Shown one piece after another: positions 6,716 through 38,491 of a stretch of 64,000 nt of DNA. How positions within the stretch are numbered: position 1 is the first letter of the stretch; each line of letters starts with the position of its first letter. The notes under the pieces are model-generated. The model was not told where the DNA came from and searched no databases. It worked only from the letters and a program-made list of their open reading frames with translations. The stretch is from contig OX597821.1 in assembly GCA_951406725.2 (NCBI GenBank), positions 103,788,001 through 103,852,000 of the forward strand, read 5' to 3'. Made by a program: the position numbers and the translations under genes. The DNA comes from Octopus vulgaris. Its lineage: Eukaryota.

Positions 6716-7200
6716 TTAGTGGTACAACAAGCACCAAAAGTTCCTGGAAATAGCAGTCGATACAATATACTGGCAAAGACGTGTGAGTGCAATAAACATG
6801 AAAAATTTGTCTTACCTGTGGAAAGAACATTATATAAATGGACAACCCAGAATCGGAAATGCAATACCTAGGTTTCGGACTCTTCAGATACTTTTGTCAA
6901 CGTAAATTTGATCAGTCTTCATCAGCTGCATTTACCTAGACAATATTTCAAATGTTGCTACATTAATGCCAGTATACTCGCCTGAACGCTTAGCCGTTAA
7001 CAGAACGGGAACAGTGACAATTGTTCAATGAAAAACAAAATATTGTAATACAGATGTATTACTTTCCAATAAAATAAAGCACCGTAAATGTAGAATTATA
7101 AACATGAATATAGATTAGTGGTACAACAAGGCACCAATATTTACGGGAAATAGCAGTCGATACGTATACGACGCTATCGTAAAGCTTCACTGCGTATATA
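6714..7200 (-). mobile_element. Non-coding hammerhead-bearing element with partial direct repeat (~400-bp spacing)
   Basis: GATTAGTGGTACAACAAG..GGAAATAGCAGTCGATA at 6714 and again at 7113; hammerhead between them; same family forms a palindrome at 29844-30083. Confidence 0.7.
6857..6933 (-). ncRNA. Type I hammerhead ribozyme (predicted)
   Basis: Minus strand: AAATGCAG-CTGATGA-aGACT..AGTCc-GAAA-CCTAGG-TA-TTGCATTT; 8-bp stem I, full core, palindromic stem III ACCTAGGT, GUA cleavage triplet. Confidence 0.85.
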
Positions 7201-7687: not shown

Positions 7688-8246
7688 TTAAGGGTAGAAA
7701 TTGATATTTATCAATTAAGACCAGTGGTCTACCATATTAAAAAAGAATCCGAAGATTAAAATATTTATATATACCAATTAAGGACTGAACACGAAAAGTG
7801 GACAGTCAACATGCTAGATATAGACGTCAAATCGCCATTCTCCACAAAAGATTATGTTCTCAGATCAAACTCAGCACAAAACAAAGCAATAAACAAGTGA
7901 AAATATACGAAATAAGATAATTACTCATGTACTGATCAGTTTCGGCTATTATTATCCGCAAGGATAACTGCAGCCTTCATCAGCATGGTCCGCTATAAAT
8001 GCATCTAGTCCAGCAAATTGCATTTATAACGGACCATGCTGATCAAGGCTGCAGTTATCCTTGCGGATAATAATAGCCGAAACTGATCAGTACATGGGTA
8101 ATTATCTTATTTCGTATATTTTCACTTGTTTATTGCTTTGTTTTGTGCTGAGTTTGATCTGAGAACATAATCTTTTGTGGAGAATGGCGATTTGACGTCT
8201 ATATCTAGCATGTTGACTGTCCACTTTTCGTGTTCAGTCCTTAATT

Positions 8247-16305: not shown

Positions 16306-16607
16306 GTATATATATATCAGTAACAATAAAGGGTGAAATTAATTAATTTGGAATAATTATCAATTACACCAAGTAGATTTCGGCATGTAAAAGCCTCATA
16401 TGTATATATATATATATATGTATATATAAATAATAATAAATATTAGGGAATGAATCCAAAATTACAGGGAAAAATCAGATTTAGGGTTAAATCCAATTTT
16501 ATAGTAAAATATTATATAATATAATTCGAGACAAAACCACTATTTTAAAACCAAACAAGGAAAGACTTAATCAATACATAAAATTTTAATATAAATTAAA
16601 TAAACCG

Positions 16608-16651
16608 CCACTACAAATGTTTCATGTCTGCTACCGACAATCTTCAGGTGG
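16608..16651 (-). ncRNA. Type I hammerhead ribozyme (predicted), within element 16435-16697
   Basis: Minus strand: CCAC-CTGAAGA-tTGTC ggtagca GACAt-GAAA-C attt G-TA-GTGG; identical to the copies at 18289-18332 and 18388-18431. Confidence 0.8.
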
Positions 16652-16810
16652 ATTTTCGATCTTCTAATCAGTATCAAATTTTGATACTGATTAGAAGCGT
16701 GGTTTCAAATATACAGGAATATATGTGATGGTCAATTTCGACGAATGTAGCTGTGACGCTTGTTGCTGACCGGCGCAGAGAGGAGTAAAAACACGTCTTT
16801 ATACTTCAGC

Positions 16811-16860
<50 letters not shown>

Positions 16861-16882
16861 ATATATATGTATATATATATAC

Positions 16883-17686
16883 ATAATAATGAAGGGTGAA
16901 TTTAATTAATTTGGAATAATTATCAATTACACCAAGTAGTCTTCGGCATGTAAAAGCCTCATTCGAGGAAAATTTAAGTAATACTAAGCAATAAAGGGTT
17001 TAGCAACGAATTGCCTTACCACAGACCGAATTTAGAAATAGCAGTCAAAGAGTTATAGCTATTTCTTCTACTAAAAAGGGAGATCTCAGTAAAAACACAG
17101 CAATTGGAAGGCAGACACAAACAGGTAAGAGAGAATGAATTGACGGCAATCTATCATACAATTTTAAGTTATCTACGGACGCACGTTTCGAAATCAAGTT
17201 TTTAGGAAAGCATAAGAATTAAATATTAAATAATTCTACCTTACCCAAACTTCTTTTCTCTTCAGCGTAGAATACTATAATCATAAATGATTATATATTG
17301 AATTTTGAGATACTAGTAGGCACCAACTCAACTCAGTATCAGAGCGAGCTAGAATCCGCAACTAGTATCACCAAATTCAAAGTGTGAATGAAAAGATTGT
17401 GTCACCAGCCCCTTCCCACCCGCGTGTAGCCAAAACAAGATGCTGTGGTCATCTACTGAGATAAAATATGGTTATCCGTAATAATGAAGGGTGAAATTAA
17501 TTAATTTGGAATTGCCATCAATTCATTCTCTCTTACCTGTTTGTGTCTGCCTTCCAATTGCTGTGTTTTTACTGAGATCTCCCTTTTTAGTAGAAGAAAT
17601 AGCTATAACTCTTTGACTGCTATTTCTAAATTCGGTCTGTGGTAAGGCAATTCGTTGCTAAACCCTTTATTGCTTAGTATTACTTA
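16883..17686 (-). mobile_element. Hammerhead element: ~597-bp monomer, start of a second tandem unit, then inverted segment, in (TA)n
   Basis: ATAATGAAGGGTGAA.TTAATTAATTTGGAA at about 16886 and again at 17481; 17511-17686 is the reverse complement of about 16975-17150; another terminal fragment at 16325-16399. Confidence 0.8.
17172..17271 (-). ncRNA. Type I hammerhead ribozyme (predicted) with extended stem II
   Basis: Minus strand: TCTACG-CTGAAGA-GAAA...TTTC-GAAA-C gtgc G-TC-CGTAGA; 6-bp stem I, canonical GUC triplet. Confidence 0.85.
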
Positions 17687-17911
17687 TATATATATACATA
17701 TATATACATATATATATATATACATATATATATATACATATATATATATATACATATATGTAAATACATATATATATATATATATATATCTCCTTCCCTT
17801 CTTTCCTGAGCGTCAATAATACTTTAATTGTTCCACGTCCTGCGTTGGTGTGTTTTTTTTTCTTTTTGTTTTCTTTTTTTCTCTTTTTTTTGTGTGTTTT
17901 CTTGTTTGGAT

Positions 17912-18191
<280 letters not shown>

Positions 18192-18195
18192 CATA

Positions 18196-18522
18196 TATAA
18201 TATAATTCGAGACAAAACCACTATTTTAAAACCAAACAAGGAAAGACTTAATCAATACATAAAATTTTAATATAAATCAAATAAACCGCCACTACAAATG
18301 TTTCATGTCTGCTACCGACAATCTTCAGGTGGATTTTCGATCTTCTAATCAGTATCAAAATTTGATACTGATTAGAAGATCGAAAATCCACCTGAAGATT
18401 GTCGGTAGCAGACATGAAACATTTGTAGTGGCGGTTTATTTGATTTATATTAAAATTTTATGTATTGATTAAGTCTTTCCTTGTTTGGTTTTAAAATAGT
18501 GGTTTTGTCTCGAATTATATTA
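18196..18522. mobile_element. Essentially perfect palindrome (centre 18360) carrying two opposed hammerheads, in (TA)n
   Basis: Arms of about 160 bp with almost no loop; hammerheads at 18289-18332 (-) and 18388-18431 (+). Confidence 0.9.
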
Positions 18523-18553
18523 TATATGTATATATATATATATATATATATGT

Positions 18554-18596
<43 letters not shown>

Positions 18597-18625
18597 ATAT
18601 ATATATATATATATATGTATATAGG

Positions 18626-18833
<208 letters not shown>

Positions 18834-18982
18834 ATCCAAACAAGAAAACACAAAAAAAAAGAAAAAAAAAAAAAAAAAAAAAGAAAAAAACACAGCAACG
18901 CAGGACGTGGAACAATTAAAGTATTATTGACGCTCAGGAAAGAAGGGAAGGAGATATATATATATGTATATATATATATATG

Positions 18983-19133
<151 letters not shown>

Positions 19134-19144
19134 TATATATATAT

Positions 19145-19230
<86 letters not shown>

Positions 19231-19636
19231 GCTGAAGTATAAAGACGTGTTTTTACTCCTCTCTGCGCCGGTCAGCAACAAGCGTCACAGCTACATTCGT
19301 CGAAATTGACCATCACATATATTCCTGTATATTTGAAACCACGCTTTTTCCCAACTCGTGAGTAGACTTTTCCTTAACCACAAACTATTTTCATAATTTT
19401 CAAACGACCAAATATTTTCAAACACCTTCTGATAACTAAATTAGAAGAAGAGGGAAAAAAAGAAAAGAAAAGAAAGATAAAATAACTACAAGCTCATAAT
19501 TCAAATACAAACTTCTCAGTATTACAGCAAACATTCTGTACAATCAATTCTACATACTTCTCCTTAAAAAAAATAATTAAAAGTAATCAACAAAACAAAC
19601 GAACAAAATAAAATTTAATAAAACATATCAACCAGA

Positions 19637-20145
19637 ATGGCTAGCCACCAAAAATCCAACAAAAACTGGTCTGATAATGAAGTCGACGTTCTTATCAACA
19701 CATGGCATGGCCTTACCGAAACAGAGAGCATTGGTGCTTCGTCTTCAAACTATCATCTACACCTTTCACAACTCACACACACACACGCACCTACACACCC
19801 ACTCGAAACCCCATCATTTGCCGATATTCTCTTCGCCATAGACTGTGCACTGATAGAGACTGCAAATTCACCCATTTACCTGGAACAAAACGCTCTATCC
19901 CCACAAACTACAACAGCAACCACCATAATACAACACCACCACAACCACCAATATCTCAAACAAGGAATCCCCAAATCTGCCGCTATTCCCAGCGAGACAG
20001 ATTGTGTTTGCACAGGGATTGCCCCTTTACCCATCTCCCGGGACTCGTCGGACATTTAAAGATAACCACTCATATAAAAATAACCACAACCACAGTCACC
20101 TACAGTTCCCTAGACAGGAAACCACCTCTTCTTCCTCTTTTTTAG
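19637..20145 (+). pseudogene. LINE ORF1 (one frameshift) with two C-x8-C-x4-C-x3-H zinc fingers
   Basis: ORFs 19637 and 19702 join by a frameshift; CRYSLRHRLCTDRDCKFTH and CRYSQRDRLCLHRDCPFTH. Confidence 0.75.
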
Positions 20146-20227
20146 CTATAACGAATCTAGCAAAAGAACTGGAAAAAAACATCCGAGCTATCACCCACCA
20201 CCATCCACCACTATTACCCCACTGCAC

Positions 20228-23224
20228 ATGCCATTAAAAAGCAATCAAATAAACAAATCACCAAAACAATTAAAACCATCCACTCTCGCCTCAACATTTC
20301 TGCTTAATGCCCAAGGTATCAGCCCTTCCACCAATACACAAAAATGGAAGATAAGATTCCTGGAGGACTGGGTCGAGGCCCATCCAAACCACATCCCTTT
20401 CTTCGTCCTCACTGAAACTTGGAAGCCGAGGTGAAAGTTAAAAATTTCAAAACCATTCGTGCTGATCGTGCTGGCAGAAGAAAGGGTGGGACTGCCATTT
20501 ATGTCCATGATTCATTCTCAACAGAAGCCATGAACATATTTTCCAATGGGTACTGCGAAGCAGTCGCTGTATTCAGTCAAACCAACAACTTAACAGTAGT
20601 TGGGCTCTACAGACCACCCCAAACGCCCCTACCATGCTTCAAGGAATGCCTCAACAGCATAAAGTGTTTCATTCAGCAGTGTCAACCTGACAACATTTTA
20701 ATGATGGGAGACTTCAACCTTCCCGGGGTTGACTGGTCTACAAACAGTCTGCCGCCAGGTTCTTCTCTCAACCCTTGACAGGGAGGCAGTGGAATCGCTT
20801 CTTGACTTCATGGATGATTTCTTCCTGTCCCAACTGGTACTCGAACCAACGAGATGTCATAAAAACGTCTTAGACTTAATTTTCAGCAATCACACTGATA
20901 CTATCCACAATATTACAGTGGAGAAAACCCTACTCTCCGACCATGACATGGTTCTCTGTGATCTGAGATTTCACTGGCCAAAATGCAAAACAAATGTCAT
21001 CCCTCCTGTTCATCCATTTGACACTATGGATTTCCACAATGCAAACTGGGAAGCGATCAATAATTATCTTGCACAAGTCGATTGGTCCTTCACGCACACA
21101 TACACACCCACTAACATCAAAAAGTCCTGGCAGTCACTTGTAGACACCATCACGAACATATGTGCAAGACACACCCCATTATGATCTGCAAACAAATCTA
21201 AGTGTCGAATCCCTAGAAATAGAAAATCTCTCATAAGGAAAATTAAAAGAATTAACAAAAAGATCAACATGCTGAAATACTGTCAACAGCAACACACCAA
21301 CCTGACTGCCATCTCGTCGCTAGAGATTAAAAAACATAAACTCCAAAACAACATGATGTCTATCATCAATAGTCAGCGAAGAGCTGAAGAGGCCTGGGCC
21401 ATTGAGAAGATCAAACTCAATCCCAAAGTGTTCTTTTCATTTGCAAAAAAACACAGAGTCACTGGTTCTACTGTTGGCCCTCTGATTGATGAAAATGGTA
21501 CTCTTCAAGACAATGCCAAAACCATGGGAGAGATATTGCAGAAACAATATTGCTCTGTTTTCAGCAATCCTGATATGACTGATCTGGGCTGTATCAGTGA
21601 TGTTACTCCCCAATGCACTTTATCGGACATAACATTTGGCGCTCCTGATGTCTTAGCAGCAATAAAGGAAATGAAGCATAATTCAGCAGTAGGTCCCGAT
21701 AGGTTCCCTGCTTGTGTCTTGAAGATGTGTCAAAACCAACTTGCACCCCCTCTAGCCAATCTGTGGCGGAACTCACTGGATGCTGGATATATACCAGAAG
21801 ACCTTCTATCCCAGTCTGTTGTCCCAGTTTTCAAAAAAGGAAACAAATCGCTTGCCGTGAATTACCGTCCAATCTCACTCACCTCTCATATCATCAAGGT
21901 ATTTGAGAGAGTGCTGAGATCGCGTATGACTCACTTCCTTGAGAGTCATAATATGCTGAACCCCAACCAGCATGGATTCCGTAATGGGAGAGATTGCCTG
22001 ACGCAGCTACTGCATCATTTTGATGACATTTTGAGAGCCTTGGAAGAAGGTTCCAACACTGATGTCGTCTACCTTGATTTCAGCAAGGCCTTTGACAGGG
22101 TTGATCATAAGATCCTTCTGAGAAAGCTGTCCAATATTGGTGTCACTGGAAAGCTGCTGCAGTGGATCAAGTGCTTCCTGTCTAAGAGAACCCAACATGT
22201 TGTAGTCGAAGGAGTCAAATCCAGCCCAGCCAAAGTCAGCAGTGGTGTCCCACAAGGCACTGTGTTGGGCCCACTTCTCTTCATCATCTACATAAATGAT
22301 ATTACTGACCCCATCAAACACAGTAACATCAGAACCTTCGCTGATGATTCCAAGCTCCAGGAGGTCATCAATGGCGTGGAAGACCGAATAAACCTTCAGT
22401 CAGACCTACTGGCTGTTGTCCAATGAGCGGAAAAGAATAACATGTTGCTAAATGAAGACAAATTCGAACTGATCCACTTTGGAAGGGAGGACGCTCTGAA
22501 ACTCCCATACTCCCTTCCTTCTGGAGAAATTCTCATGGCATCCAACAACATCAGAGACTTGGGAGTAACAGTGGACAACAACATAAGCTGGGATACACAT
22601 ATAAGCAGCAAAGTTGACATGGCCCGCAGAATGTGTTCCTGGATTCTCAGAACCTTCCAGTCGAGAGATTCCCACGCTATTATCCTTCTCTTCTCCACTT
22701 TTGCCCGACCCCACCTTGAATACTGCTGTCCACTGTGGTCTCCCTACACAAAACAAAATATTATGAGAATTGAAGCTCCCCAAAGGTCAATCACAAAAAA
22801 GATAGATGGCATGTCAGACCTTGACTACTGGGGTAGACTAGAGAAGCTGAAATTGTATTCACTCCAACGACGCCGTGAACGCTACATTATCTGTATGACG
22901 TGGAAAATATTCCATCAGCACTGTCCGAATGATGTTGGCATTACCTTCAAAATACATCCAAGGCTTGGACCACGTGCCATCCGTCCACAACAAAAATCTA
23001 AATCGCATCACATAACGACAATACGGCACAACTATTTCACCTCAATTGGACCCGCTGTCTTCAACATTACACCAGGACACGTCAAAAATGAAACTGACCA
23101 CACAAAATTCAAGAAGTATTTGGACAAATTTCTTCAAACAGTACCGGACAAACCACCCACACCCGGATATGTCTCCGCAAACAATAACTCTCTGCTCGAA
23201 TGGGCCTTGGTGCCCAAATCCTGA
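20228..23224 (+). pseudogene. LINE ORF2 endonuclease/reverse transcriptase with frameshifts (~20430, ~20775) and in-frame stops (21182, 22424)
   Basis: Consecutive ORFs 20228, 20419, 20729, 21269 and 22442 carry collinear APE, RT and C-terminal motifs. Confidence 0.93.
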
Positions 23225-38430: not shown

Positions 38431-38491
38431 TAATAAAACTCAGTTTCAGGTGTCGGGGTTGAAGTCTGCTCCGGCATCTCATCAGTTATTA
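38431..38491 (-). ncRNA. Partly decayed type I hammerhead next to (TA)n
   Basis: Minus strand: TAATAA-CTGATGA-GATGCCGGAG..CCCCGACACCt-GAAA-C tga G-TT-TTATTA; core intact, stem II has several mismatches. Confidence 0.65.

Follow-up and report, generated by a model that had tools for sequence, protein, structure and literature searches.

A non-coding hammerhead retrozyme family in Octopus vulgaris whose paired insertion ends resemble those of Penelope-like elements

Introduction

Metazoan non-LTR retrozymes are non-coding tandem units of low GC content that carry a type I hammerhead ribozyme, as described in the available parts of PMC7229834 and bioRxiv 10.64898/2026.07.22.740005. Retrozyme circles have been shown in coral, mussel and axolotl, and the same source, in the parts available, proposes Penelope-like elements (PLEs) as mobilisers without going beyond a proposal; its supplementary figure S9 presents a mobilisation model that may bear on the mobilisation considered here (PMC7229834). 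For vertebrate retrozymes, a PLE origin has been argued from co-occurrence and homology to the PLE pseudo-LTR (pLTR), and one of nine predicted Xenopus retrozymes was cleaved in vitro while eight stayed uncleaved, according to the accessible sections of the preprint (10.64898/2026.07.22.740005). In the parts available of both sources, the mobiliser and the template of animal retrozymes have thus far been proposed from co-occurrence or pLTR homology (PMC7229834; 2026 preprint).

The anole PLE PAc, a predicted dimer, cleaves and extends AT-rich DNA on both strands and has two internal reverse transcription starts, with uncleaved RNA as the dominant substrate (PMC11167929, available parts). PLE insertions contain an inverted truncated copy and a tail of 30-40 bp, often at one end only, and Hydra-clade PLEs possess a CxCX5C linker and target (TA)n (PMC8557442, available parts).

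Here, we describe a retrozyme family of Octopus vulgaris. The kind of element is already known; what this analysis adds is the family, a quantitative match to the PLE footprint, a two-site module and a counter-signal concerning the template. The family resembles the metazoan non-LTR retrozymes of the available literature in its tandem non-coding organization, hammerhead type and low GC, as well as in the lack of visible LTR features, a self-paired predicted circle and co-occurrence with PLEs. Its 595-nt unit compares with ~170-400 nt for invertebrate circles (PMC7229834, in part) and with 51-972 bp across families (bioRxiv 10.64898/2026.07.22.740005, in part), and its 69-nt stem II is without the short loop 2 usual in the metazoan retrozymes of these sources. 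The available parts of PMC7229834 and the 2026 preprint yielded no description of two fixed 3' ends combined with back-to-back arms, and a search of literature mostly outside subscription journals found no report of cephalopod retrozymes or of paired two-site retrozyme ends.

Results

We analysed a 64,000-nt stretch of the O. vulgaris genome (GCA_951406725.2, contig OX597821.1, positions 103,788,001 to 103,852,000, forward strand; hereafter the window), from a TA microsatellite-rich assembly of 2.8 Gb. Comparison of the window with itself gave a period of 595 nt, with 16884-16917 recurring 595 nt downstream with one mismatch. A first-pass annotation had described a ~597-nt monomer starting at 16883, a tandem restart and an inverted copy of about 16975-17150. 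Its unit size of roughly 600 nt stands with the period corrected to 595, the restart is real, and the inverted copy was recovered as 17511-17689, the reverse complement of 16972-17150 with a sole internal difference (17517 G>A, at a CpG); the element's own sequence stops at ~17686. Position 16883, however, is the 3' (putative priming) end of the left arm, at site B, and therefore not a unit start. With unit positions numbered from the predicted cleavage site (after 17178), the left arm starts on the minus strand at about position 250-261, runs through a full unit and ends at positions 292-300 (16883-16886). The minus strand is the RNA sense of the element.

The locus consists of two outward-pointing, back-to-back arms inside (TA)n, joined at a 2-nt microhomology read from the window sequence, and both 3' ends enter (TA)n (Table 1). 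No target-site duplication is definable at the locus, where TA tracts lie on both sides. The longest stop-to-stop frame fully within the element spans 57 aa, in line with the annotated absence of an ORF of 60 aa or more; longer frames extend into the TA tracts.

Table 1. Features of the retrozyme locus and its surroundings (window coordinates)
Feature	Position	Strand	Details
Sister-subfamily truncated insertion	16316..16399	-	93% here; unit ~583-588 nt; ends at site B
(TA)n target tract, left	16820..16882		
Left arm	16883..17510	-	~1.05 units; 3' end = putative priming site B, faces left TA tract
Putative priming module	16886..17078	-	unit ~100-300; site A 16970-16993, site B 16886; 68-94% conserved in sisters
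One full 595-nt unit	16886..17480	-	6 differences from family majority base
Type I hammerhead (predicted)	17168..17275	-	CUGAAGA 17265-17259; stem II 17258-17190; GAAA; stem III; GUC
Tandem restart	17481..17510	-	~30 nt of preceding unit
Right (inverted) arm	17511..17686	+	unit positions 28-203; 3' end = site A, faces right TA tract
(TA)n target tract, right	17687..17789		

The surrounding DNA forms a large palindrome (16695-19346, centre ~18360). Its halves are identical at 125/125 positions between 16695-16819 and 19222-19346, at 119/124 between 17790-17915 and 18830-18953, and at 155/155 between 18205-18360 and 18361-18515. As the retrozyme is present in the left half only, its insertion probably postdates the inverted duplication. 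A degraded LINE, its family judged by eye, lies at 19622-23224 (+), with endonuclease-like and RT-like frames containing stops.

The locus carries a single hammerhead, which agrees with the annotated GUC motif with a long AU-rich stem II and was assigned to type I on the minus strand. Its AU-rich stem II measures 69 nt, stem III comprises 2 bp and a 4-nt loop, and stem I has 6 bp; C17 of the GUC falls at 17178, after which cleavage is predicted. The minimum free energy fold includes stems I-III (z -1.6, 126 nt), and an Rfam search of the window returned no match at gathering thresholds. The core is intact, self-cleavage is predicted, and a sister subfamily bears a compensatory change in stem I, U-A to C-G. 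Folded as a predicted circle, the 595-nt unit reached -158.3 kcal/mol, with a z of -6.0 relative to 60 shuffled sequences, and its antisense -128.2, strong circle pairing being predicted for the hammerhead strand only. Identity with plant LTR retrozymes was rejected, since these have a type III hammerhead within LTRs and a 4-bp target-site duplication, as opposed to a type I motif in a tandem unit.

Other hammerhead-like sequences were observed alongside. A second family, at 16436-16697 (-) and 18194-18526, combines CUGAAGA, a 17-nt stem II with a U-U base and GUA; it has 1564 first-look candidates. Most copies are almost perfect palindromes around a fixed centre, with a short and a long arm ending in TA; the copies examined were short and had no tandem units. 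Three more type I hammerhead-like motifs lie in the window at 6865-6925, 7930-7983 and 38437-38485, all on the minus strand. Variant cores were seen as CUGAAGG in a divergent relative, family D (L345 1330-1410), and as CCGAAGA in the pLTR of a young PLE with a 775-aa frame (L141).

Genome-wide, a 31-nt hammerhead core motif has 267 exact copies and a 33-nt downstream motif 498, with none for the reversed controls; a search with the unit returned 1901 first-look candidates. Copies are spread over many contigs and are mostly 97-99% identical. We sampled 107 non-redundant insertions with 173 arms from the best unit matches and the first-listed motif matches, mostly on contigs 1, 2, 3 and 5, a sample that favours long, intact copies; every arm below 93% identity was left out, as were four duplicates and one fragment cut off at an edge. 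Aligning genomic copies, as the first-pass annotation had recommended, revealed a ~600-nt unit arranged head-to-tail and circularly permuted, with up to six passes per arm. The copies loop back to the unit, and continuation into an RT/GIY-YIG ORF was found in 0/107 sampled insertions, so that identity as an autonomous PLE was rejected; PLE fragments flanking sampled copies are separate insertions beyond the TA tracts. The element thus belongs to the non-LTR retrozymes, as a tandem family that is young, scattered through the genome, free of coding sequence and equipped with a type I GUC hammerhead. The least probable of the explanations we weighed takes the copies for truncated forms of an autonomous PLE, with the unit as its pseudo-LTR, or has the arrays arise by tandem duplication at the DNA level. 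Xenopus retrozymes do resemble pLTRs (bioRxiv 2026.07.22.740005, available parts), the family was sampled in part and one array is mosaic (C5_14400300), but no sampled insertion enters an ORF, the units loop back on themselves, and the arrays are short and dispersed with both arms ending at RT-type sites.

Sister families exist at ~88%, 77% and 68% identity, with conservation mainly at unit positions 100-300. Family D is another non-coding repeat, of ~590 nt; an ORF beside one of its copies was considered as a partner and rejected as an unrelated repeat. The longest array (L150, G000:C5:14400300-14407900; ~9 laps) is the mosaic one: some variants are fixed in just one of its arms, and linked variants turn up in laps here and there. 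Contigs from four presumed-RNA runs (X1, X2, X4, X10) span 30/30 unit bins, and three of these runs contain the joint of unit end to unit start; because genomic tandem arrays yield the identical joint, its presence is no evidence for expression or circles.

Subsequently, we mapped the 3' ends of all 173 arms. Ninety-six fell in zone A (positions 185-208), 56 in zone B (288-313) and 21 elsewhere, such that 152/173 arms end at about 197 nt (A) or 300 nt (B) from the cleavage site, and TA-rich DNA adjoins 157/173 ends. Because sites with TAT/ATA microhomology are spread over the whole unit, the zones are not explained by microhomology alone. Each site comes after an ACCCT sequence and an AT-rich stretch, both of them retained in sister families. 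All 58 two-armed insertions are divergent and none convergent. Both ends lie in a zone in 46 of them, as AB in 43, AA in three and BB in none (AB expected 22.9, p 2e-10), and one or both ends lie outside the zones in the other 12.

The first-pass annotation had attributed the inverted arm to a strand switch, in which a single cDNA folds back and is copied into that arm. At this locus the short arm does lie within the long one, as it does in 36/58 insertions, so that, judged from the window alone, fold-back may have acted here; arm 5' ends lie within 20 nt of each other in 11/58 insertions (4.0 expected), suggesting that fold-back may happen sometimes, and one variant near the junction is found in both arms (C2_184009800 position 530). 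As a general account, we regard it as improbable. In 22/58 insertions each arm includes sequence that the other lacks, which fold-back could produce only with a further template switch; moreover, the pairing of A with B is not predicted, and in 20 of the 43 AB pairs the arm ending at A is the longer.

To compare with an autonomous element, we examined a PLE family of the same genome with an ORF of ~1312 aa and a weak RVT_1 match. Among 20 divergent pairs, both ends were resolved in 18, and all 18 combined a short and a long end, ~57 nt apart (the tail); the remaining two continue into a tandem copy. Three further pairs of this family and one pair of a 775-aa RT+GIY-YIG family likewise combined short and long. 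Together, the A and B pairing and the match to the short-plus-long ends of this PLE point to Penelope twin priming rather than the annotated strand switch: PLE-type two-site priming is very likely, with a separate cDNA most likely started from each of the two cut DNA ends. In L1 twin priming, both target ends prime on the RNA, yielding a 5' inversion with a microhomology junction. The retrozyme shares priming from both ends, inversion and microhomology with L1, but its starts are two fixed internal sites, its arms overlap in sequence and can both be longer than a unit, and poly(A) is absent.

We next considered the template. Per arm, the cleavage site is crossed 0, 1, 2, 3, 5 or 6 times in 56, 70, 36, 9, 1 and 1 arms, respectively, so that 47/173 arms cross it two to six times. 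Among the 180 crossings, 179 are seamless, and stops at the site number three against 3.3 expected. Without an excess of stops, the template is circular or an uncleaved multimer, as the annotation's circular or concatemeric RNA implied, and a cleaved linear monomer is not the usual template. The R2 reverse transcriptase can jump end to end between templates. Jumping of this kind on self-cleaved linear monomers, which would make a covalent circle unnecessary and would homogenise laps too, appears very improbable here, given that 179/180 junctions have no extra or missing bases and that stops at the cleavage site are not in excess.

Sequence variants were then followed through the laps. The two arms agree in allele in 227/229 comparisons at eight linked polymorphic sites (chance 0.51-0.61), indicating that the arms derive from one source. 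A further 65 common and nine rare variants recur in each lap of either arm, and fixation of this kind favours repeated copying of a single monomer. Long arrays differ from one another by a mean of 4.5 fixed sites, and 17/41 have at least one fixed difference from every other sampled long array; such private variants may originate from unsampled source arrays. Examined for RNA editing that had become fixed in the genome, the 30 rare fixed substitutions include eight A>G and eight T>C, without strand bias (p 0.61), and these two classes make up 16/30 rare fixed changes versus 28/128 singletons (p 0.001). Five rare variants occur in one arm and not in the other, and two of these (C15 position 32; C5_14400300 position 176) are fixed throughout the laps of their arm, which suggests that some insertions were copied from two RNAs or underwent conversion afterwards; another five fit no pattern.

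The counter-signal comes from two rare variants that both arms carry in their last lap and lack in the earlier one (C25 position 41; C2_26197500 position 136), a pattern that a single circle does not predict and that favours linear multimers; a third flagged lap-matched case sits in a mosaic array. The same PLE twin priming might indeed act on the uncleaved transcript of an array, the hammerhead being slow or irrelevant to mobilisation, a reading we judge unlikely though not remote. Besides the two clear lap-matched variants, seamless junctions fit it equally, insertion by the anole PLE was unaffected by hammerhead mutants (PMC11167929, available parts), and three independent arms, having completed a full pass, terminate precisely at position 2, as expected of a 5'-cleaved dimer. 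Against cleaved-dimer stops, however, ends within 5 nt of the cleavage site show no excess. Furthermore, arrays copied from arrays would be expected only to shorten and to inherit heterogeneity, whereas the observed arrays are internally uniform, and all-lap variants outnumber lap-matched ones by nine to two or three (rare) and 65 to none (common). Counting against the circle-based reading are also the eight uncleaved Xenopus retrozymes and the use of mainly uncleaved RNA by the anole PLE. The template signal is mixed but circle-leaning: judged from variant patterns in genomic copies, it is somewhat more likely than not that the usual template is a circle or one monomer read again and again, and circle and linear-multimer routes may both operate.

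Discussion

Our analysis makes it probable that this retrozyme was inserted into TA microsatellites by a PLE enzyme, with both cut ends primed at two fixed RNA sites, probably often on a circle, a reading drawn from insertion sequences. Arrays would be transcribed on the hammerhead strand, and self-cleavage and ligation would yield 595-nt circles. A PLE RT/GIY-YIG complex, perhaps a dimer, would bind the conserved module at unit positions 100-300; both (TA)n strands would be cut, one end being primed at A and the other at B. Each reverse transcription would then proceed 5'-ward over a random length of up to six laps of the unit, and the cDNA ends would be joined via short microhomology. A more specific version, which we hold tentatively and at slightly less than even chance, places a Penelope RT/endonuclease dimer on one closed 595-nt RNA, with one strand per motif copy and the module as a portable signal. 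The dimer would dock at the duplicated ACCCT-AT-rich motif, and both RTs would roll round the same circle. If so, a ~200-nt two-site module, kept in at least five retrozyme families, would let any RNA circle enter (TA)n.

The features of a PLE-mobilised element are present in the family: an inverted truncated arm, two 3' ends with a tail, and a (TA)n target. As in the PLEs of PMC11167929 and PMC8557442 (available parts), the inverted arm is 5'-truncated, the tail is often one-ended, two internal RT starts lie downstream of the hammerhead, and targets are (TA)n or AT-rich. In contrast to these PLEs, as far as the same parts describe them, the retrozyme has no ORF, its tail measures ~100 nt versus 30-40, its ends lie ~197 and ~300 nt beyond the predicted cut, and it has no homology to any sampled autonomous family. 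Chlamys MRC1, a non-autonomous PLE passenger in the available parts of PMC8557442, is likewise found as multicopy head-to-tail insertions. The insertion ends thus match, quantitatively, those of an autonomous PLE of the same genome. The two exact priming sites and the 200-nt module could be used directly in the existing in vitro PLE assay, and the strict pairing of short and long ends bears on the origin of inverted, tailed PLE insertions, which is left open in the available parts of PMC8557442.

Searching for a helper, we identified by protein and GIY-YIG searches at least four PLE families that are young and retain long open frames, of 775, 781, ~950 and 1312 aa. When the unit DNA was compared with ~120 GIY-YIG/EN-anchored loci with 1.5-kb flanks and five longer stretches, only inserted retrozyme relatives matched, and translated similarity between the unit and the sampled PLE families was absent (best E 0.37). 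One young family has a CxCX5C linker as in the Hydra clade and a similarly long stem II, and can be named as a candidate helper, as a lead only.

Two observations on the PLEs are added. The young Hydra-clade-like element (L142 3274-6153, -; L144 1414-4278, +) has a 950-960 aa frame with a long Asn-rich insert, a ~2-kb 3' region and a hammerhead stem II of ~80 nt, and gave no Pfam match. In the 775-aa PLE (L141 5861-7222, -), a separate upstream frame of 454 aa overlaps the RT frame in another phase, which is unusual among single-ORF PLEs.
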